Source: Nanobdellota archaeon (GTDB lineage: Archaea; Nanobdellota; Nanobdellia; Pacearchaeales; GW2011-AR1). From it: a stretch of 49,584 bases of DNA. Below, one piece after another: positions 1,611 through 33,823 of this stretch. Below the pieces are notes generated by a model, which was given only the letters and a program-made list of their open reading frames with translations, did not search any database and was not told the origin of the DNA. A program made the position numbers and the translations under genes. The stretch lies in NCBI GenBank assembly GCA_030647965.1, contig JAUSIT010000028.1:1-49584 (forward strand), in the 5' to 3' direction. Within the stretch, counting starts at the first letter, position 1; every line of letters begins with the position of its first letter.

Positions 1611-1742
1611 ATCAAAAAAACCCTTTTGATTATTCATATGGTTTTTAGGATGAAGGAAATTCGCTCGAATTTCCTGCCCTGAAAATTAAATCAATTTTCA
1701 GTGATCCAAAATTTAACTAAATGATAAAAAATTTATAGACAT
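1611..1742 (+). repeat. AT-bounded four-hairpin palindromic element
   Basis: ATCAAAAAA...GACAT; hairpins ggaaattc/gaatttcc and ctgaaaatt/aattttcag; collinear with reverse complement of 6039-6159. Confidence 0.8.
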
Positions 1743-2431: not shown

Positions 2432-2511
2432 AAAAAAGCATAACGAACCCTATCTAATTGTCCTGAGCTCAATCCTGAACCGTCATTCGTTCAATAGGAC
2501 TTACTCGTTAT
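2432..2511 (-). ncRNA. Candidate ~80 nt small structured RNA
   Basis: Minus-strand BRE/TATA at 2540-2533, three nested stems, closing T6 tract at 2437-2432. Confidence 0.5.
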
Positions 2512-12219: not shown

Positions 12220-12594
12220 ATGGCAAAACAAAAAACAGAAACAAAGGAAAAGGAAAAAGCAGTTGTAAAAACTGGCAAAACTAGCTGTGCTGATAAATTA
12301 TGTCCATTCCATGGAATAGAACCTGTAAAATTAAGAGGAAGAATCTTTGAAGGAGAAATAATTAAAAAATTTCCAGGAAGAGTTGTTATTCAATTTGAAA
12401 GAATGTTATATGTTCCAAAATATGAAAGATATGAAAAAAGAAAAACAAAATTACATGCAAGATTGCCTGACTGCTTAAAAGATACAATGCAAGTTGGAGA
12501 TTATATAAAAATTGCAGAATGCAGACCATTGAGCAAAATTATACATTGCATTGCAACTGAAAAAATAAGAAGTAAAGGAGGAAAATTAACATGA
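12220..12594 (+). CDS. rps17: 30S ribosomal protein S17 (uS17)
   Basis: CPFHG, RGRIFEG, PKYERYEKR, ECRPLSK. Confidence 0.97.
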   Translation: MAKQKTETKEKEKAVVKTGKTSCADKLCPFHGIEPVKLRGRIFEGEIIKKFPGRVVIQFERMLYVPKYERYEKRKTKLHARLPDCLKDTMQVGDYIKIAECRPLSKIIHCIATEKIRSKGGKLT

Positions 12595-12992
12595 AAGCAA
12601 TAAGCGCAAGAACAACACGAGGATTAAATTTAGGAAGTGTAGTTGATGCAGCAGATAACAGCGGAGCAAGAAAAGTAAGAATAGTTTCTGTAAAACATGG
12701 AAAAGGAACAAAAGGAAGACAAATAGCTGCAAAAGTTGCTGATTGGGTTAAAGTATCTGTAAGAAAAGGAGATCCAAAAATGAAAGGCGAAGTATTTGAT
12801 GCAGTTGTTGTAAGACAAAGAAGAACATGGAAAAGAAACACAGGAGAAACAGTTGGATTCATGGATAATGCTGTTGTTTTATTAAAAGACGATAAAGGAA
12901 ATCCAAAAGGCACACAGATTAAAGGACCTGTTGCAAGAGAAGTTCAGGAAAGATGGAAGGAAGTAGCTAAACTAGCTACAGTGGTGTATTAA
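12591..12992 (+). CDS. rpl14: 50S ribosomal protein L14 (uL14)
   Basis: ADNSGA, AVVVRQR, DNAVVL, PKGTQIKGPVARE. Confidence 0.97.
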   Translation: MKAISARTTRGLNLGSVVDAADNSGARKVRIVSVKHGKGTKGRQIAAKVADWVKVSVRKGDPKMKGEVFDAVVVRQRRTWKRNTGETVGFMDNAVVLLKDDKGNPKGTQIKGPVAREVQERWKEVAKLATVVY

Positions 12993-12993
12993 T

Positions 12994-13052
12994 ATGAAAA
13001 ATAAAAATTTTTCAAATACTCGCTTGTGGAGGACAAGCTTCGTATAATGAAA
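12994..13052 (+). repeat. Two-hairpin element at the rpl24 start codon
   Basis: 24 nt identical to 15329-15352; bounded by ATGAAA direct repeats. Confidence 0.9.
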
Positions 13053-13538
13053 CAAAAATTCAGTATGAAATGGAGATCAAGCAAGCAACCTCGAAAACAG
13101 AGGAAATTCATAGCAAATGCTCCAATGCATATTAAAAGAAAAATGTTAACAGTTACTCTTGAAAAAGAATTAAGAAAAAAATATGGAAGAAGAAATATTG
13201 AAGTAAGAAAAAATGATGAAGTAAAAATCATGACAGGAAAATTCAAGAAAAAACAAGGAAAAGTTATTGAAGTTAATGTAAAAAAAATGAAAATATATAT
13301 TGAAGGAATACAAATTACAAAAAAAGAAGGAACAAAAGTGGGAGTAGGAATCCATCCTTCAAACCTGAAGATTATTTCATTAAATACAGACGATAAAAAA
13401 AGAATGAAACAAAGAAATGAGAAGAAAACAGGAGAAAAGACTGAAAATAAAAACGAAAAGAAAATGGAAAATAAAATAAAAACAGAAAAAACTCAAACTA
13501 AACAAACTGGAGAACAAAATGCACCTAAAAAGAAATAA
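13047..13538 (+). CDS. rpl24: 50S ribosomal protein L24 (uL24) with K/E-rich C-tail
   Basis: SKQPRKQRK...NAP.H, LRKKYG, IHPSNL; ATG 13047 preferred. Confidence 0.96.
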   Translation: MKQKFSMKWRSSKQPRKQRKFIANAPMHIKRKMLTVTLEKELRKKYGRRNIEVRKNDEVKIMTGKFKKKQGKVIEVNVKKMKIYIEGIQITKKEGTKVGVGIHPSNLKIISLNTDDKKRMKQRNEKKTGEKTENKNEKKMENKIKTEKTQTKQTGEQNAPKKK

Positions 13539-14169
13539 AATGCCTATTGTTTGGCCAATAAGAAGGAAAGGAACAAAATACATAGCAGTAGCTAGTCATT
13601 CAAGAACAAAATCAATCCCAGTATTATTTATTCTTAGAGACATGCTTGGACTTGTTCAAACAAGAAAAGAAGCAAAATATTTTGTTTTAAATGGAAATGT
13701 AAAAATAAATAATAAAATAAGAAAAGATGAAAAATTCCCTGTTTTATTTTTTGATACTTTAAGTTTTGAAAAAACAAAGAAAAATTACAGATTAGAAATT
13801 GTAAACAAAAAATACAAATTAAAAGAAATTTCCGATGCAGAAGCAAACAAAAAAATTGTAAAAATCATTGGCAAAAAAATTATTGATAAAAATAAAATAC
13901 AAATGAATTTAGAAGACGGACAAAATTTCTTTATGAAAGAAAAATTCGCTTTAGGAGATTCTGTTATAGTAGATACAAAACAAAATAAAGTTGAAAAAAT
14001 ACTTGAACTTAAAATTGGAGCAAAATTATTAATTATTGGTGGAAAACATCTTGGAGAATCTGGAAAATTAAAAGAAATTATTCCATTTGAAAGAGAGAAA
14101 AAATATAAAATTCAATTAAAAGATAAGGAAGTAATTCTTCCTGGGAAAACCTTTTTGGTTGTAGATTAA
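13519..14169 (+). CDS. rps4e: 30S ribosomal protein S4e (eS4)
   Basis: MHLKR...W.I.RK, LRDMLG, GGKHLG. Confidence 0.95.
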   Translation: MHLKRNKMPIVWPIRRKGTKYIAVASHSRTKSIPVLFILRDMLGLVQTRKEAKYFVLNGNVKINNKIRKDEKFPVLFFDTLSFEKTKKNYRLEIVNKKYKLKEISDAEANKKIVKIIGKKIIDKNKIQMNLEDGQNFFMKEKFALGDSVIVDTKQNKVEKILELKIGAKLLIIGGKHLGESGKLKEIIPFEREKKYKIQLKDKEVILPGKTFLVVD

Positions 14170-14170
14170 A

Positions 14171-14692
14171 ATGAAAGAAAATTCAATGAGGGACGTTAAA
14201 ATAGAAAAAGTGATTTTAAATGTAGGCGGGACTGGAGATAAACTTGAAAAAGGATTTATTTTACTTCAAACACTATCTGGAAAAAAACCAATAAAAATCA
14301 AAGCAAAAAAAAGAATTCCTACTTGGGGAGTAAGACCTGGATTAGAAGTTGGAACTAAGATTACTTTAAGAGGAGAAGATGCTGAAAAGATGATTAACAA
14401 AGTATTGCCTGCAATTGATAATGTATTAAAAGAAAGACAAATCAAAGATAATTTTGTTTCTTTTGGAATACCTGAATATATTGAAATTCCTGGAATGGAA
14501 TATATCAGAGAAGTTGGAATTATGGGTTTTGAAATTACTATTGTTTTCACAAGATCTGGAAAAAGAATTGAAAGAAAGAAAATAAAGAGAGGCGATGCAA
14601 AAAGACAAAAAGTAAGTGCAGAAGAAATTAAAAAAATTATGATAGATAAGTTTAAAACTAAAATTATAGCTAAGGGAGGAAGAGAACAATGA
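14171..14692 (+). CDS. rpl5: 50S ribosomal protein L5 (uL5)
   Basis: [29 protein letters not shown]. Confidence 0.97.
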
Positions 14693-14919
14693 CTGCAAGT
14701 GATTGGAATAAAGTAACTAAGCAGTTGAAAAACAAACCAGTTATATTAAAGAAATTTACAAAACATAATAAACCAAAAGTAAGAAAATTTGGAATCTCTT
14801 CAAAAAAATGCGAAAATTGCGGAAGATTCGGAGCCCATGTGGGACAATATGGATTAAATTTATGCAGGCAGTGTTTTAGAGAGCTTGCAGTTGAACTAGG
14901 GTTCAAGAAATATAGTTAG
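14689..14919 (+). CDS. rps14: 30S ribosomal protein S14 (uS14, Zn-type)
   Basis: CENCG...[18 protein letters not shown]. Confidence 0.97.
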
Positions 14920-14927
14920 GAGTCAAA

Positions 14928-15299
14928 ATGTCACATGATGTAATTGCTGATGCGCTAAACCAAATAATGAATGCTAAGAAAGTAGAACATAAAGAAGTTC
15001 AAATTAAAATGTTTTCCAAACCACTTATAGAACTATTAACTATAATGAAAAAAAGAGGGCATATTGATTTTACAAAAGAAGACGACAAAATTACAATTAA
15101 AATATTAAATGTAAATGAATGCAAGGCAATAAAACCAAGATATTTTGTAAGAGTAGTTGATATTGACAAATACTTAAAGAGATTTTTGCCTTCAAGAAAT
15201 TTTGGAACAATGATTATTTCTACAAACAAAGGTTTAATGGACCAATTTCAAGCTGAAGAAAATAAATTAGGAGGAAGCTTAATTGCTTATTTCTATTAA
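14928..15299 (+). CDS. rps8: 30S ribosomal protein S8 (uS8)
   Basis: D.IADAL, IKPRY, FLPSRNFG..IISTNKGLM, GG.LIAYFY. Confidence 0.97.
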   Translation: MSHDVIADALNQIMNAKKVEHKEVQIKMFSKPLIELLTIMKKRGHIDFTKEDDKITIKILNVNECKAIKPRYFVRVVDIDKYLKRFLPSRNFGTMIISTNKGLMDQFQAEENKLGGSLIAYFY

Positions 15300-15303
15300 G
15301 AAT

Positions 15304-15364
15304 ATGAAAATTTCATTAAATTTTCAATTACTCGCTTGTGGAGGACAAGCTTTGTACCATGAAA
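15304..15364 (+). repeat. Two-hairpin element at the rpl6 start codon
   Basis: Second copy of the 12994-13052 element. Confidence 0.9.
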
Positions 15365-15904
15365 CGAGATATTGAAGAAATTATAGAAATCCCAGAAGGC
15401 ATTGAACTTAGTTTGAACAATTTTGAAATAATTGTAAAATCAAAGGGTAAAGAATCAAAAAAAGCATTTGTTTTGCCTAATACAATTAAAATTGTAAAAG
15501 ACAATAAAATATTAAAATTAATTGCAAAAAATTCAACAAAAAGAGAATCAAAACTAATTGGAACAACTGTTGCACATATAGAAAATATGATTAATGGAAT
15601 GAATGAAGAATTTGAATATAAATTAGAAATATGTAATGTACACTTTCCAATGAATGTCAAAGTTGAAGGAAATAGAATGATAATTAAGAATTTTTTAGGC
15701 GAAAAAGTTGACAGAATTGCAAAAATACTGCCTGGAGTTAAAGTAGAAGTTAAAGGAAACAAAGTAGATATAACTTCACATAATAGAGAAGCTGCAGGAC
15801 AAACAGCTGCAAATGTTGAAACAGCAACAAAAGTTAGAGGAAGAGATAGAAGAATTTTCCAAGATGGAATATTTTTAACAGAAAAATGTGGGAGGAAGAT
15901 ATAA
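15359..15904 (+). CDS. rpl6: 50S ribosomal protein L6 (uL6)
   Basis: AHIENMING, HFPM, NFLGEK, GQTAAN, DRRIFQDGI. Confidence 0.97.
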   Translation: MKRDIEEIIEIPEGIELSLNNFEIIVKSKGKESKKAFVLPNTIKIVKDNKILKLIAKNSTKRESKLIGTTVAHIENMINGMNEEFEYKLEICNVHFPMNVKVEGNRMIIKNFLGEKVDRIAKILPGVKVEVKGNKVDITSHNREAAGQTAANVETATKVRGRDRRIFQDGIFLTEKCGRKI

Positions 15905-18943: not shown

Positions 18944-18996
18944 TTAGGTAAGCTTTAAAAATACTTTTTGTTTCAATTTATCAGAGGAATAATGAA

Positions 18997-20382
18997 ATGA
19001 ATTTAAAAGATATACTACATAATCTGCCTGAAATTCAGGGGCCAACTGAAAAAAAATTAGGTTTTAATGTTAAGCTTAAATGGACAATTATAATTTTAGT
19101 TGCGTTTTTTGTTTTAGCAAATATTCCATTATACGGACTTTCTGAGAATAATTTATCCAGATTCAAATATCTAGCTATTTTACTTGGAACTGAATTTGGT
19201 TCAATTATTTCTTTAGGTATTGGACCAATTGTTATGGCTTCTATTATTTTACAATTACTTGTTGGAGCAAAAATTTTAGAAATTGAAACAAGCACTCCTG
19301 AAGGAAAAAGATATTTTCAGGGTTTGCAGAAATTATTAGTTTTTGCATTTATAATTTTTGAAGCAATGGTTTATGTTTTAATGAAAGGACTTACTTCAAA
19401 TTCTATTTTAGGAATTTATGGTCCAATAATTTTAATAGTTCAGCTCTGTCTCGGCGGGCTGTTAATTGTTTTTATGGATGAAGTTGTTCATAAATGGGGA
19501 TTTGGTTCTGGAGTTAGTTTATTTATCGCAGCAGGAGTTGGCTGGAGATTATTTGCATCATTATTTCAATTTTTAGGACCTGAAAAAACACTTGAACCTT
19601 CTGGAAAGGTTTTGGTTTTAATTTCGTCTTTAATAAATTCAGATCCAACAGGAGCTACAAAAGCTCTTGGTGCGATTATTATAACTGCAATAATATTTTT
19701 AGTTGTTGTATGGGCTCAATCACTAAAAGTTGAAATTCCATTATCATTTGACAGAATGAGGGGATTTGGAATGAGATGGCCATTACAATTTTTTTATGCT
19801 TCGGTTATTCCAGTTATTTTAGTTTCTGCTCTTGCAGCTAATTTGCAATTATTTGCAAGTTTAATTGAAAATTGGGTGGGGCATGCAACATTTTTAGGAG
19901 GATTTTCTGCAGAAGGAACTCCGCTTTCAGGAATATCATTTTGGATTCATTCAACTCCTTTGCTAGATGCTATTCTTACTGGAAGTTTTAGATGGGTTTA
20001 TTTATTGCAGGGATTAGGTCATATTTTATTTTATACTATATTTTCAATTTTATTTGCATTTTTTTGGGTTAATACTTCTGGAATGGATGCTGCTTCACAG
20101 GCAAAAAATATAATGAAATCAGGATTGCAAATTCCTGGATTTAGAAAAGATGAAAGAGTTTTAGAGTCTATATTAAAGAGATATATTGCTCCACTAACAA
20201 TCATGGGTGGTGCTGCAATTGGCCTTTTAGCCTCAATTGCAGACTTATTAGGAGCATTAATTGGAGGAACATCAATATTGCTTGCAGTTATGATTTTATA
20301 TCAATTATACCAAAACATTGCTCAACAACATGCACTTGATATGCATCCTGCATTAAAAGGGGTTTTTGGAGGAAATTCATAA
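18997..20382 (+). CDS. secY: Protein translocase subunit SecY (Sec61-alpha)
   Basis: LGIGPIVMASIILQLL, WGFGSGVSLFIAAG, QIPGFR, GGTSILL. Confidence 0.98.
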   Translation: MNLKDILHNLPEIQGPTEKKLGFNVKLKWTIIILVAFFVLANIPLYGLSENNLSRFKYLAILLGTEFGSIISLGIGPIVMASIILQLLVGAKILEIETSTPEGKRYFQGLQKLLVFAFIIFEAMVYVLMKGLTSNSILGIYGPIILIVQLCLGGLLIVFMDEVVHKWGFGSGVSLFIAAGVGWRLFASLFQFLGPEKTLEPSGKVLVLISSLINSDPTGATKALGAIIITAIIFLVVVWAQSLKVEIPLSFDRMRGFGMRWPLQFFYASVIPVILVSALAANLQLFASLIENWVGHATFLGGFSAEGTPLSGISFWIHSTPLLDAILTGSFRWVYLLQGLGHILFYTIFSILFAFFWVNTSGMDAASQAKNIMKSGLQIPGFRKDERVLESILKRYIAPLTIMGGAAIGLLASIADLLGALIGGTSILLAVMILYQLYQNIAQQHALDMHPALKGVFGGNS

Positions 20383-32348: not shown

Positions 32349-33823
32349 AAATAATAATAGGTTATCCACCAACAGAATCTGCAAAAGGAACTGCATTGCT
32401 ATCACAAAATAGGCAGTTTCAGTGGTTTAGCAATCCAACTTATATATTTCCAGTAATACTTGCTTCTGCTGCAACTATTTTAAAAGCAAATGGAAATGAA
32501 GTAAAATGGATTGATTGTATTGCTGAAAAAATAAATAAAGAAAATTTTTTTGAAGAAATTGAAAGAGAAAAACCAGAATTATTTATTTTTGAAACAAAAA
32601 CTCCTGTAATAAAACAACACTGGAATTTAATAAATGAAATAAAAGAAAAATTTCCTGAATTAAAAATAGCTGTTTTAGGAGATCATGTTACATCTTTTCC
32701 AGAAGAAACAATGAAAAATTCAAAAGCAGATTTTGTTTTAACAGGGGGAGATTTTGATTTTCTCTCTTTAAACCTTGTTAATTTCTTAAGCAAAAATAAC
32801 AAGAAAGGCAAAAAAGTAAAAGAAAAATTAGATACAGGAATTTATTATAGAAAAGCTGGAAAAATTTTGAATACAGGAACTTTTCAATTGAAACATAATT
32901 TAGATGAAGCTCCATTTATAGACCGGGAATTAACAAAATGGAAGTTGTATGAAATTGAATATAATTTAATTGGAAGGCCATTTTTTTACATAATGTCTGG
33001 AAGAGATTGCTGGTGGGGGAAATGCAAGTTTTGTGCATGGCCAAGATTATTTCCAAAATTCAGATGCAGAAGTGTGAAAAATGTTTTAGATGAAATTGGA
33101 ATGTTAATTGACAAGTATGATGTTAAAGAAATATTTGATGATTCTGGGACTCTAATGGTTGGAGATTGGCTAAAAGAATTATGCAATGGATTAATTGAAA
33201 GAGGATATAATAAAAAAATAATATATTCGTGCAATATGAGATTTGGAACACTAAAGCAAGAAGATTATGATTTAATGAAAAAAGCAGGATTTAGGCTTTT
33301 AAAATTTGGATTAGAGTCTGCAAATCAGTCAACATTAGACCTATTAAATAAAGGAATTAAAGTTGAAGACATTAAAAATGGATGTGAAATGGCAAAAAAG
33401 GCAGGCTTAACTGTTCATTTAACAATGATTGTAGGTTATCCTTGGGAAACAAAAGAAGATGCCTTAAACACCTTTAAACTTGCAAAAGGGCTAATGCAAT
33501 CAGGAAGAGCAGACTTGCTTCAGGCAACTGTTTTAGTCCCATATCCAGGAACTCCTATATGGAAAGATGCTAAACAAAATGACTGGTTTTTATTTAATCC
33601 AATGGAATATGAAAGATATGATATGTCAGAACCAATTTTAAAAACAAAAGATTCAAATCCAGAAGAAATTGCAAAAATCTGTGGAAAAATTTATACAATA
33701 TTTTTAACTCCTCAGTATGTATTTGCAAGATTAAAAAGCATAAGAAGTGTTGATGATTTTAAATTTAACTTAAGAGGAGTCAAGGCAGTTGCAGGGCATT
33801 TGAAAGACTTTTTAGTTAGATAA
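32345..33823 (+). CDS. B12-binding-domain radical SAM protein
   Basis: N-terminal cobalamin-binding-like domain; RDCWWGKCKFC, FGLES, VGYPWET, PYPGT. Confidence 0.88.
   Translation: MKIIIGYPPTESAKGTALLSQNRQFQWFSNPTYIFPVILASAATILKANGNEVKWIDCIAEKINKENFFEEIEREKPELFIFETKTPVIKQHWNLINEIKEKFPELKIAVLGDHVTSFPEETMKNSKADFVLTGGDFDFLSLNLVNFLSKNNKKGKKVKEKLDTGIYYRKAGKILNTGTFQLKHNLDEAPFIDRELTKWKLYEIEYNLIGRPFFYIMSGRDCWWGKCKFCAWPRLFPKFRCRSVKNVLDEIGMLIDKYDVKEIFDDSGTLMVGDWLKELCNGLIERGYNKKIIYSCNMRFGTLKQEDYDLMKKAGFRLLKFGLESANQSTLDLLNKGIKVEDIKNGCEMAKKAGLTVHLTMIVGYPWETKEDALNTFKLAKGLMQSGRADLLQATVLVPYPGTPIWKDAKQNDWFLFNPMEYERYDMSEPILKTKDSNPEEIAKICGKIYTIFLTPQYVFARLKSIRSVDDFKFNLRGVKAVAGHLKDFLVR

Follow-up and report, generated by a model that had tools for sequence, protein, structure and literature searches.

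In tiny archaeal genomes that are densely packed with genes, selfish or regulatory DNA finds hardly any space, and most operon genes are translated through stop-start coupling. The locus described here raises the question of what a repeated pair of hairpins is doing directly before the start codons of two ribosomal-protein (r-protein) genes, how it came to be there, and whether it acts on the translation of the genes that follow.

Two copies in a ribosomal-protein gene cluster

The window (the whole stretch of DNA that was analysed, 49,584 nt) contains two exact occurrences of the 24-mer TACTCGCTTGTGGAGGACAAGCTT (13017-13040 and 15329-15352; zero mismatches, expected number 0), and none of 100 dinucleotide shuffles contains a match at up to 3 mismatches, confirming the identity claimed by a sequence-only reading of this DNA. 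Both occurrences sit in spacers between genes assigned by Pfam, and each belongs to a module of 53-55 nt in which a first hairpin (HP1, AUGAAAAU..AUUUUCA) is followed by a second (HP2) made of a basal stem, a UC/UUC internal loop, a 6-bp stem and an RGAGG loop. The features are as follows.

12591..12992, + strand: rpl14, gene upstream of copy 1 (Pfam Ribosomal_L14, E 7.5e-34)
12994..13046, + strand: copy 1 of the element, 53 nt, in the rpl14-rpl24 spacer, with the exact 24-mer
12994..13047, + strand: uORF 1, 17 codons, MKNKNFSNTRLWRTSFV
12995..13014, + strand: HP1 of copy 1, stem of 8 bp (UGAAAAAU/AUUUUUCA) closing a 4-nt loop (minimum-energy fold)
13016..13045, + strand: HP2 of copy 1 (fold; covariation of the family), with basal stem 13016-13019/13042-13045, internal loop UC 13020-13021 / UUC 13039-13041, apical stem 13022-13027/13033-13038 and GGAGG loop 13028-13032
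13047..13538, + strand: rpl24 (archaeal L24), gene behind copy 1 (Pfam Ribosomal_L26/KOW; N-terminus matches relatives)
14928..15299, + strand: rps8, gene upstream of copy 2 (Pfam Ribosomal_S8)
15304..15358, + strand: copy 2 of the element, 55 nt, in the rps8-rpl6 spacer, with the exact 24-mer
15304..15375, + strand: uORF 2, 23 codons, MKISLNFQLLACGGQALYHETRY
15305..15326, + strand: HP1 of copy 2, stem of 9 bp (UGAAAAUUU/AAAUUUUCA) closing a 4-nt loop (fold)
15329..15356, + strand: HP2 of copy 2 (apical hairpin in the fold; basal stem from the family alignment), with basal UAC 15329-15331 / GUA 15354-15356, internal loop UC 15332-15333 / UUU 15351-15353, apical stem 15334-15339/15345-15350 and GGAGG loop 15340-15344
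15359..15904, + strand: rpl6, gene behind copy 2 (Pfam Ribosomal_L6)

The hairpins described earlier (TGAAAA..TTTTCA, and GCUUGU/ACAAGC with a GGAGG loop) fold in both copies, with energies of -13.4 kcal/mol (z -3.7) for copy 1 and -12.7 kcal/mol (z -1.95) for copy 2, and HP1 of copy 1 takes in the U and G of the upstream AUG. The proposed TAC/GTA basal stem is present in the minimum-energy fold of copy 1 but not in that of copy 2. Covariance model R1 matches the two copies at 13013-13048 (58.4 bits) and 15325-15360 (50.9 bits). The suggestion that these are the two longest spacers between r-protein genes holds only in that they are among the three longest, as the 53-nt spacer before a 461-aa ORF at 18997 is equally long and lacks the element.

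The short reading frames were also described correctly, with lengths of 17 and 23 aa and frames different from those of the genes behind them: uORF 1 begins 1 nt past the stop codon of rpl14 and ends in a TAA that shares bases with the rpl24 ATG (TAATG), and uORF 2 starts 4 nt past the rps8 stop and overlaps rpl6 by 17 nt. Natural gene overlaps of 11-23 nt are present elsewhere in the same operon as copy 2. The positions of the upstream ATGs (12994 and 15304) and of the gene ATGs (13047 for rpl24, 15359 for rpl6) place the ATGAAA repeats 53 and 55 nt apart, and the sequence bears out that excision of copy 1 gives TAA-T-ATG. The repeats thought to flank the copies do exist, but the 5' ATGAAA is the 5' arm of HP1, i.e., a part of the element. 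By sequence comparison, these gene ATGs are the real starts of rpl24 and rpl6, because the N-termini of relatives align with them; a GTG in the loop is in frame in 5/5 early copies, but is ruled out as a start by the same N-termini.

A repeat family with a covarying RNA structure

R1 detects 11 copies in the window's genome (G000, 85% complete). A structural scan of that genome for TC-N6-RGRGR-N6'-TTY gives 12 matches; reversing the genome leaves 1, and five shuffled versions yield 0-1. With up to 3 mismatches allowed, the whole genome, its rRNA contig too, contains the 24-mer at three element sites only. At the same tolerance the 24-mer is present in 7/355 genomes of the family, carrier genomes having 1-11 copies each. 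R1 finds no copy in 150 other genomes sampled across the class (0/150, including 0/17 of the same family), and the element is absent from the closest sampled relative, G016. HP2 and the linker are identical over 32 nt between two genera in which S8 is only ~55-57% identical, a degree of conservation that needs either very strong selection or recent transfer. The element is a small non-coding cassette of ~50-57 nt found in a few genera of one DPANN family. Scanning the whole window at Rfam gathering scores returned only DUF3800-X, away from the element, and at E up to 10 the locus of the third copy gave only a chance Histone3 match off the element; full-text literature searches, supplements aside, turned up no account of the element.

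Comparisons across the family use 86 distinct instances with an exact 20-mer core from related DPANN MAGs and metagenomes. Three loci in GC-rich coding DNA (L030, L098 and L133, one of them titled Micromonospora) were removed before all counts, and the loose 18-mer matches L004, L005, L008 and L009, which are without HP1 and without the TC/TTC frame, were treated as chance. All 10 base pairs of HP2 covary with changes on both sides (76 aligned HP2 sequences), and 92% of alignment cells pair, versus 79% in shuffles (0/500 reach the observed value) and 29-48% with the partners slid. The basal stem, which was unused in sequence selection, shows AU 43 / CG 19 / GC 9 / UA 3 as well as UA 34 / CG 33, and it ends 0-5 nt ahead of the real AUG. 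HP1 has a stem of at least 7 bp in 82/86 instances (best within 40 nt before HP2) versus ~21 in shuffles, occurs with 45 different 5' arm sequences, and is separated from HP2 by a gap of only 1-3 nt.

The unpaired UC/UUC and RGAGG are conserved at a fixed distance of 6 bp between two covarying stems. The invariance of UC and TT(C/T) in the 76-sequence alignment is partly by construction, because the search pattern had preset both flanks, and looser R1 matches include UC/UC and UU/UUC variants of the internal loop. Display of a Shine-Dalgarno (SD) sequence alone does not explain the conservation of UC/UUC, which suggests a specific binding partner. A likeness of UGUAGAGGACA to the sarcin-ricin loop was weighed by eye, as were a K-turn, a C/D box, a tRNA anticodon-arm mimic and an internal archaeal promoter, and all were dropped as the defining bases are lacking.

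Placement, insertion and junction geometry

A same-strand ORF led by ATG lies within 60 nt of 74/86 instances (55 have the ATG at +7 and 10 have it at +4), and in essentially every case the element reads in the same direction as its neighbouring genes. The r-protein genes make up 29/74 of the downstream ORFs (Pfam), with the element before at least 20 different r-protein genes and many others (e.g., RNA polymerase subunits, Spt4, exosome, proteasome, NDK, antitoxin-like genes (MazE, HicB-like) and ArsR-type genes); in the window's genome the downstream genes are those for L24, L6, L10e, EF-2, NrdD and a radical-SAM protein. Three of the genome's copies are found at gene 3' ends, with a stop codon within HP1 and no adjacent gene start, and tandem arrays with no ORF to serve are found on four contigs of other genomes. 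A long open frame contains just one of the 86 exact-core instances, L148, which belongs to a tandem array.

Evidence for movement comes from junctions that differ in content. The rpl14-rpl24 junction is tight and without the element in 29/29 relatives, and the rps8-rpl6 junction is tight in most of 29 relatives and element-bearing in G003. An empty site is seen on a 303-nt contig of a close strain (run X3; flanks ~98% like the window, depth 2.9), which reads ...TAATATGAAA + CAAAAATTTTCA + ATGAAATGG..., i.e., the L24 start minus the 53 nt; this comparison used contigs, and of its joints, which were mostly cross-matches to DNA of other organisms, the X3 record-18 join alone was kept. The leucyl-tRNA synthetase (LeuRS) of the window's genome contains 18 extra residues derived from a complete HP1-HP2 copy (54 nt, in frame, stop-free), and the segments that flank it are contiguous in 24/24 matching relatives (17 N-termini read directly). 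These sequence comparisons show that copies are gained by insertion. The earlier suggestion of a mobile insert is accordingly upheld in part, by 11 genome copies, junctions not fixed in the lineage, one empty site and the in-frame insertion in LeuRS; the two refutation tests set with it, for random placement and for fixed presence at the two junctions, were both run, and neither the mobile idea nor that of a donated ribosome-binding site was refuted. The further suggestion of that reading, a shared translational or processing control, may also hold.

Flanking direct repeats range from 3 to 21 nt (one copy having the 21-nt repeat) and reach 10 nt or more in 10/54 cases versus 6% of mismatched pairs. 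ATGAAA was rejected as a general target-site duplication, since the third copy precedes a gene beginning ATGGCA, HP1 variants without ATG lack the repeat, and in LeuRS the ATGGAAAAT came in with the insertion itself. The HP1 5' arm was likewise rejected as a host target sequence for LeuRS, where its codons are missing in relatives; a host-derived 5' arm is possible for the three copies at gene 3' ends. Just ahead of HP2, the segment ..ATTTTCAATTAC nearly matches the reverse complement of TAAnATGAAAAT, the junction sequence on either side of the element, which suggests possible targeting via base pairing or microhomology. By inspection, the ends (ATGAAAAT... and ...TTCGTA(A/T)A) have no terminal inverted repeats, the inverted repeats being internal (HP1 and HP2). 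No transposase was linked to the element in a search for the Y1 family (PF01797), which has 0 matches in G000 and G186 and is present in G321, G332 and G379; with 3/5 carriers searched having it, the link was rejected as inconsistent.

In 39/63 cases the HP1 AUG is found between -6 and +12 nt from the stop of an upstream ORF (spacers of -4 in 10, -1 in 2, +1 in 16 and +2 in 4), 6 more have a TATA-like word 13-45 nt upstream, and 18 fit neither pattern. At the other end the uORF, most commonly 16-17 codons long, stops at +1 (30), -4 (6) or -1 (1) from the real ATG in 37/59 cases, and 15/59 uORFs extend 7-35 nt past the real AUG. Only 3/52 uORFs (ATG at +7) share the frame of the gene, and 1 of these 3 reads through; such under-representation of the gene's frame implies recognition of the HP1 AUG by ribosomes. 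About 23/86 instances have no AUG in HP1, which, together with the uORFs that overrun the real AUG, means that a relay of ribosomes through the uORF cannot be the whole story.

The 16S rRNA 3' end (G000 C18) reads ...GGATCACCTCCT, and the GGAGG loop is complementary to its CCTCC, the AGAGG variant pairing over 4 bases. SD-like motifs are rare in this genome: a survey of 30 nt ahead of each of 682 long ORFs gives 33 occurrences of GGAGG, most of them with a spacer of 6-9 nt to the ATG. The idea that the element donates a ribosome-binding site thus finds both agreement and difficulty. For 65/86 copies a same-strand ATG-led ORF starts exactly 4 or 7 nt after the core, a placement that is non-random, but the loop-to-ATG spacer (14 nt at +7, 10-11 nt at +4) is longer than the usual range of the genome, and the loop is a putative ribosome-binding site.

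Possible functions and competing explanations

Whether the element works as a portable cassette for translational coupling and ribosome binding is, in our judgement, about evenly balanced. The proposal builds on the repeat family, its RNA structure, its fixed position and strand and the geometry of both junctions; from these we infer translation of the relay ORF, binding of ribosomes by the loop, and a benefit to the host. The cassette has repeatedly been inserted, mostly at a stop-start junction directly before a gene, so that the HP1 AUG usually occupies the place that the downstream AUG would have in a tight operon. Reporters in H. volcanii and E. coli indicate that ~20 nt between genes almost abolishes coupling (PMC10666635). 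Where genes adjoin tightly, ~55 nt of inserted DNA should disrupt coupling by termination and reinitiation, a break that the cassette would repair. Ribosomes ending the upstream gene, or entering at the mRNA 5' end, would restart at the HP1 AUG and read the relay ORF of 16-17 codons, melting both hairpins en route, until they meet its stop codon 1 nt before, or overlapping, the real AUG. With that stop in the A site, the RGAGG, complementary to CCUCC of the 16S rRNA 3' end, would be ~7 nt from the P-site codon and could tether the small subunit for a restart on the gene. In copies without an HP1 AUG the exposed loop might recruit the small subunit directly.

This arrangement resembles bicistronic designs (BCD), reportedly first described by Mutalik et al. 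in 2013, and other coupled leader cistrons, which share a leader ORF of ~16-17 codons, a second-cistron SD within the leader coding sequence, a leader stop overlapping or abutting the gene start (TAATG, ATGA, TAAnATG) and the expectation that the translating ribosome unfolds local structure. Unlike a BCD, the element is natural, archaeal, multicopy and insertional, has two conserved hairpins and a conserved internal loop, has an SD spacer of 14 nt versus ~7, and is without a leader AUG in about a quarter of the copies. Synthetic BCD elements are treated in PMC5995908 and bioRxiv 10.1101/2023.02.09.527918. A stronger version, which we hold only tentatively and consider somewhat doubtful, is that the element is a self-propagating coupling adaptor of ~55 nt that homes to stop-start junctions and makes its own insertion harmless or useful, by bringing a relay mini-cistron and a ribosome-binding loop. 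The cassette may have originated in rpl24, since the HP1 palindrome is already present in the first codons at the 5' end of that gene.

The conserved hairpin could alternatively be a lineage-specific regulon operator, HP2 being bound by a trans-acting protein (an r-protein, an initiation factor or another RNA binder) that co-regulates the translation of r-proteins, EF-2, RNA polymerase, tRNA synthetases and similar genes, with copies duplicated and kept by the host. Once bound, this protein would mask the start region in the way that MS2 coat protein does at its operator hairpin. We regard this as unlikely. Conserved unpaired UC/UUC and RGAGG within covarying stems are what a hairpin recognised by a protein usually shows, translation and growth functions are enriched among the downstream genes (the r-protein share, EF-2, NrdD and the LeuRS context), and conservation of the element reaches far beyond that of the flanking genes; like the operators of archaeal L1, of bacterial S8/spc and of MS2, the element is a small hairpin with conserved unpaired bases, and it is found at r-protein cistron starts inside a spc-like operon. 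No partner is known, however, and an element missing in 150/150 sampled genomes of the class and in G016 cannot be a core regulatory system. Unlike r-protein operators, it is not confined to one operon or to its own mRNA, has no motif copy in the genome's rRNA (24-mer, up to 3 mismatches), matches nothing in Rfam and is absent from most relatives. The antitoxin-like and ArsR-type targets, the partly constructed invariance of the internal loop, and the 3'-end, tandem-array and LeuRS copies, which have no start codon to regulate, weigh in the same direction. A role in mRNA processing or stability, quite unlikely in our estimate, would have the transcript cut between or beside the hairpins, so that HP1 guards the 3' end of the upstream piece and HP2 the 5' end of the downstream piece, where, perhaps with a bound small subunit, it improves translation. 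Paired hairpins at cistron borders, copies at gene 3' ends and tandem arrays suit such a role, and an SD-like 5' stabiliser has a precedent in STAB-SD of Bacillus thuringiensis cryIIIA. Processing sites are over-represented in the 5' UTRs and intergenic regions of r-protein operons of a methanogen, mostly just 5' of ribosome-binding sites, with processed transcripts that are stabler and better translated (PMC5499594). Against this, HP1 and HP2 are separated by just 1-3 nt, and processing leaves the +4/+7 distance to the ATG, the uORF junction geometry and the avoidance of the gene frame unexplained.

Two further explanations place the element at the level of DNA or of spliced RNA. A selfish palindromic repeat like REP or RPE, with hairpins that serve a recombinase or transposase on single-stranded DNA and with the SD likeness and the uORF as by-products of which insertions survive, is very unlikely, even if a patchy multicopy distribution, tandem arrays and structure kept while sequence varies (as in other hairpin recombination sites) are what such a repeat would show. 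The insertion polymorphism and in-frame insertion in a conserved protein seen here are also described for RPEs, and repeats fused into protein genes for archaea including Methanocaldococcus (PMC10969869 and PMC2229807); with RPEs and Methanocaldococcus palindromic repeats the element shares a non-autonomous, patchy, multicopy, intergenic palindrome and, once here, an in-frame insertion that leaves a housekeeping protein (LeuRS) unbroken. Unlike RPEs (~100-150 bp, mostly intragenic), it is ~55 nt long, intragenic in 1/11 genome copies, tied to start codons and equipped with an SD-like loop. REP/BIME (RAYT) repeats and MITEs are likewise short and hairpin-forming, lie in intergenic DNA that is transcribed, fall into subfamilies, form tandem arrays and are expected to affect mRNA, but the criterion for REPs in PMC3733652, a GTAG/CGTC tetranucleotide ending a 20-40 bp palindrome, has no counterpart here, the GTAG of the element being found only at the stem-loop border of AGAGG variants and never at an end. 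No Y1 (IS200/IS605-type) transposase was found in 2/5 carriers, including the window's genome, in contrast to REP/RAYT; MITEs differ by their terminal inverted repeats, and the direct repeats of the element are variable. The sense orientation and fixed start-codon distance, which distinguish the element from REPs and MITEs, are not required by a DNA hairpin site, and the scarcity of uORFs in the gene's frame again implies recognition of the AUG by ribosomes. An intron-like intervening sequence, cut from the RNA to restore the tight junction or the LeuRS frame, is scarcely credible. Removal does restore TAA-T-ATG and the LeuRS sequence of relatives, and ATGAAA repeats flank both window copies, but the shorter form exists as DNA, because the empty site was seen in DNA contigs, and 54 stop-free nt in frame in LeuRS are what a translated, not a spliced, insertion needs. 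An archaeal bulge-helix-bulge (two 3-nt bulges on opposite strands of a 4-bp helix) is missing, the element having only hairpins and a 2x3 internal loop in which 2 and 3 unpaired bases face each other, and it matches no Rfam ribozyme or intron family.

The element bears on annotation, as gene callers will pick the in-frame loop GTG or call relay ORFs, and will take the LeuRS insertion for ordinary sequence. To our knowledge translation initiation in DPANN archaea has not been studied experimentally, and the element offers a concrete handle on it; the strongly conserved hairpin may in addition indicate an RNA-binding partner. If the coupling cassette is real, it would be a ready-made, evolution-tested part for context-independent archaeal expression, and, should it also propagate itself as an adaptor, a natural mobile counterpart of engineered bicistronic designs. 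For the organisms themselves, a cassette able to enter such a junction precisely while still handing ribosomes on would offer repeats a new means of survival in streamlined genomes, and genes a new route to an independent ribosome-binding site.

Elements of the ribosomal-protein operon and their structure

The 24-mer singled out by the sequence-only reading has exactly two matches in the window (13017-13040 and 15329-15352), compared with none in 100 shuffles even when 3 mismatches are allowed. As claimed, both fall in spacers between ribosomal-protein genes, which Pfam assignments place at the rpl14-rpl24 and rps8-rpl6 junctions of an archaeal ribosomal-protein super-operon (source genome ~1 Mb, 28% G+C, 45 contigs, from a groundwater community), and the upstream ATGs, the distances of 53 and 55 nt, the two hairpins (HP1 and HP2), and the two upstream ORFs (uORFs, read from the HP1 AUG) in differing frames were all recovered. 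The description of these as the two longest spacers is only partly accurate: both stand out in an operon whose other junctions are tight (mainly -4, -1, or +1 nt; some genes overlap by 11-23 nt), but a third spacer of 53 nt stands out equally. The window features concerned are:

~1655-1712 (+): copy of a second repeat family
2441-2510 (-): DUF3800-X RNA, 58.4 bits versus a cut-off of 38.2, the sole Rfam gathering-score match in the window
12994..13046: element copy 1, rpl14-rpl24 spacer
13026 and 15338: in-frame GTG within the HP2 loop, taken as the start of rpl24 and rpl6 by a mechanical ORF list
13047-13075: first codons of rpl24, which in many relatives (MKKEFS = ATGAAAAAAGAATTTTCA; loci L237-L265) form an HP1-like palindrome
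15304..15358: element copy 2, rps8-rpl6 spacer
18944-18996: third long spacer, before a 461-aa ORF at 18997, with a promoter-like AT box, TATA-like GCTTTAAAAATAC, plus AGAGGAATAATGAAATG; lacks the element; a probable internal promoter followed by an SD of the ordinary kind

Each copy forms a two-hairpin module in which HP1 precedes HP2 by 1-3 nt. The stem of HP1 is A/U-rich, 8-9 bp long, and begins on its 5' side within an AUG (AUGAAAAU...AUUUUCA). HP2 comprises a basal stem of 3-4 bp, an internal loop of UC versus UUC (UUU in place of UUC in copy 2), and a 6-bp apical stem closed by the five bases GGAGG. In the window copies, the end of the HP2 basal stem lies 1-2 nt before the AUG of the gene. 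Gene callers may choose the loop GTG as the mechanical list did, adding 7 false residues to rpl24 or rpl6. Two further likenesses to rpl24 were observed, the copy 1 uORF (MKNKNFSNTRLWRTSFV) resembling the L24 N-terminus (MKxxFSxxWKxSKQ) and TGGAGGACAAGC in HP2 resembling TGGAGATCAAGC in the gene.

In a 76-sequence alignment, all ten HP2 pairs change on both sides and 92% of cells are paired, versus 79% in shuffles (0 of 500 reach 92%) and 29-48% with partners slid, although covariation figures for the apical stem and its TC/TT(C/T) flanks are biased because these were part of the selection pattern. The basal stem, which was not a selection criterion, covaries freely (AU 43, CG 19, GC 9, UA 3; UA 34, CG 33). 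Six complementary forms of the apical stem occur in the window's genome (GCTTGT/ACAAGC, GGCTAA/TTAGCC, GCTTTA/TAAAGC, ATTTGT/ACAAAT, GTTACA/TGTAAC, and AATTGT/ACAATT), with further forms in other carriers. Among 86 distinct instances of an exact 20-base core, HP1 has a stem of at least 7 bp in 82 (versus ~21 expected from shuffles), with 45 different 5' arms, and its 3' end keeps the same offset from HP2 in 57. The constant parts of the element are the unpaired bases UC, UUC, and R-G-A-G-G. The alignments indicate that the RNA structure of the element is under selection.

Copies in the genome and among relatives

Searching the whole genome revealed a third copy, between rpl35ae and rpl10e, and more beyond it. 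A structural scan (TC-N6-RGRGR-N6'-TTY with paired N6) gave 12 matches, ten of them convincing, compared with 1 in the reversed genome and 0-1 in each of five shuffles, and a covariance model of HP2 built on 76 sequences (R1) found 11 copies.

Locations of the copies in the window's genome
Six copies: directly 5' of start codons (L24, L6, L10e/uL16, aEF-2, NrdD, radical-SAM protein)
Three copies: gene 3' ends, stop codon within HP1 (Obg-like GTPase, PheRS alpha, OB-fold protein)
One copy: tandem partner of another copy
One copy: within the LeuRS reading frame

With one genome taken per prokaryote species, the exact core occurs at 19 loci (18 lie in MAGs whose titles name Woesearchaeota, Pacearchaeota, or Nanoarchaeota), and metagenome contigs contribute 81 loci; the 86 distinct instances are those left after removal of duplicates and 3 GC-rich coding-DNA matches, and strain variants may be counted among them as separate instances. 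At 3 or fewer mismatches, the 24-mer was found in 7 of 355 family genomes (reversed control pattern, 0) and in none of 45 genomes from other families of the order. No copy was found by R1 in 150 other genomes across the class (17 of the same family), using stricter Infernal filters that recover all 11 copies in the window's genome.

Copies per carrier genome (range 1-11)
G186: 6-8
G321: 5-8
G332: 8
G379: 3-5
G410: 3
G003: 2
G266: 2
G134: 1
G018: 1-2

No copy was found in G012, G013, G016 (nearest to the window's genome among sampled relatives, with 79% L14 identity), G001, G008, or G006, though many genomes are 60-90% complete, such that a copy not found is not necessarily absent. Between the window's genome and G003, S8 is ~55-57% and L14 69% identical; HP2 and the linker are identical over 32 nt, and the HP1 loops differ. 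This identity points either to very strong selection on the HP2 sequence or to copies renewed by transfer or conversion.

Several related arrangements were also observed. Tandem arrays of the whole unit (L016/L028, L038/L130, L104, L147, L148) have periods of 51-65 nt, often with an extra HP1 last, and in some, one unit's 'real ATG' doubles as the HP1 AUG of the unit after it. Three-hairpin composites (loci L202, L207, L209, and L210 of G186; C30:14072-14163 and ~32650-32732 in the window's genome) carry an extra hairpin 5' of HP1 and HP2, its loop usually RGAGG-like (AGAAG or a UCAC tetraloop in the window's genome). In metagenome run X2, from another community, a loose end at window 12989 has an element copy right after an apparent tRNA gene 3' end with a T-arm-like word (..GGGTTCAATTCC..). 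The second repeat family has five copies (window ~1655-1712 and, on other contigs of the same genome, C7:14708, C13:21267, C20:20066(-), and C34:38419), each with a GGAAATTC..GAATTTCC hairpin, TGCCC, a TGAAAATT..AATTTTCA hairpin with the same stem as HP1, and GTGATCC; it ends ~40-70 nt 5' of an ATG and is without an Rfam match.

Placement at start codons and gain by insertion

A same-strand, ATG-led ORF lies within 60 nt of the element in 74 of the 86 instances, and the ATG follows the core at +7 nt in 55 and at +4 in 10. Copies do not lie at random positions and orientations, the outcome that would have refuted the suggestion of the sequence-only reading that the element may bring its own ribosome-binding site. 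Ribosomal proteins make up 29 of the 74 downstream ORFs, including two assignments under Pfam's cut-off (L18 five times, L6 four times, and ~18 other kinds); RNA polymerase subunits, Spt4, exosome subunits, a proteasome subunit, NDK, an amidase, ArsR-type regulators, and antitoxin-like proteins also occur. Instances off the start-codon rule either come after a same-strand gene's 3' end or belong to tandem [HP1-HP2] arrays.

Fixed presence at both junctions across the lineage with no other copies would have refuted mobility. All 29 relatives with L14 found have a tight rpl14-rpl24 junction, including G003, the carrier of an rpl6 copy. At rps8-rpl6, G003 has the element and most of 29 relatives examined have a tight junction; neither junction is fixed and other copies exist. 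At the rps8-rpl6 junction of G013 (L046) and G012 (L061), an HP1-like ATGAAA..TTTTCA(A)TCATTC hairpin precedes a small hairpin unlike HP2, whose loop contains GGGG or AGGAGG (at L061, at a normal 8-nt SD spacing), and these loci look like a decayed or replaced element. A 303-nt contig from run X3, which belongs to the study that probably supplied the source sample, aligns to 12936-12999 with 1 difference and to 13065-13291 with 5, and the twelve letters in between read as the L24 start with synonymous changes; by its sequence, this one contig (depth 2.9) is the rpl14-rpl24 junction without the 53 nt. Window 13059-13064 reads TTCAGT versus TTTTCA in this empty-site strain, and because the four synonymous changes cluster in six bases amid ~98% identical flanks, there is a hint that the filled allele came through tract recombination rather than a bare insertion.

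Within LeuRS, a complete HP1-HP2 copy adds 54 nt, in frame and without a stop codon, between conserved segments that are contiguous in 24 relatives. Since by rough arithmetic only ~7% of random inserts of this size and base composition would have a length divisible by three and no stop, the reading frame argues that this copy is translated, not spliced. The copy at the GTPase gene 3' end is flanked by a 21-nt direct repeat containing the gene's last codons, and the other two 3'-end copies by direct repeats of ~13-21 nt (by eye).

The element has no terminal inverted repeats, and the direct repeats around it vary in length; a Y1 transposase is present in 3 of 5 carriers searched and was not found in the window's genome or G186. 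Identical runs of at least 10 nt surround the two ATGs in 10 of 54 instances versus 6% of mismatched pairs, the longest (17 nt) spanning the stop-start junction itself. The segment 5' of HP2 (ATTTTCAATTAC) approximates the reverse complement of the junction word (G)TAAnATGAAAAT, which often flanks the element, and ATGAAA opens 28 of 67 genes behind the element versus 156 of 930 long ORFs genome-wide. Insertion and precise loss at stop-start junctions by pairing or microhomology can be put forward as a lead only, and the family may have begun from the 5' end of rpl24.

Proposed relay translation and alternative roles

HP1 starts with an AUG in 63 of the 86 instances, and in 39 of these the AUG lies -6 to +12 nt from the stop of an upstream ORF, most commonly at +1 (16), -4 (10), or +2 (4), which are classic stop-start distances. 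Among the 59 instances that combine this AUG with a downstream gene, the uORF ends 1 nt short of the real ATG in 30; forms overlapping the ATG are ATGA (6) and TAATG (1). Two frames are in use (38 and 14 instances), and because they encode unrelated peptides, conservation does not extend to the peptide. A third frame, in which uORF and gene would be fused, accounts for only 3 of 52 instances with ATG at +7, and only one of these reads through. HP1 lengths are 19, 22, 25, 28, and 37 nt in one frame and 26, 29, 32, and 38 nt in the other, suggesting that indels are kept to the two frames, although the instances are related and do not make a clean statistic.

The 16S rRNA ends in GGATCACCTCCT, and therefore GGAGG or GAGG can pair with it. 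SD-like words are rare in this genome (33 occurrences of GGAGG in the 30-nt regions preceding 682 long ORFs) and usually lie 6-9 nt from the ATG, versus 14 or 11 nt in the element. With the stop codon of the commonest uORF frame in the A site, the sequence places GGAGG 7 nt from the P-site codon, a point from which the loop could tether the small subunit. In reporter work in H. volcanii and E. coli (PMC10666635), separating genes by ~20 nt all but eliminates coupling, so a 55-nt insert would need a relay. By function, the element comes nearest to engineered bicistronic designs and to naturally occurring coupled leader cistrons.

The long SD spacer and the conserved internal loop leave room for a protein-bound operator or for a role in processing or stability, and processing is kept alive by sites adjoining ribosome-binding sites in archaeal ribosomal-protein operons (PMC5499594). 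As a genomic object the element is like REP, RPE, and MITE sequences, including in-frame insertion in conserved proteins, but it lacks features that define them: end tags, terminal inverted repeats, size, and a linked transposase (PMC10969869, PMC2229807, PMC3733652). A full-text literature search found no description of the element. Relay translation with ribosome binding at the loop is the best-supported mechanism, with about an even chance of being correct, and the family, its structure, its position rule, and its gain by insertion are, taken jointly, very probably right. The original observation holds, and beyond it lies a family of insertional, structured cassettes at start codons.
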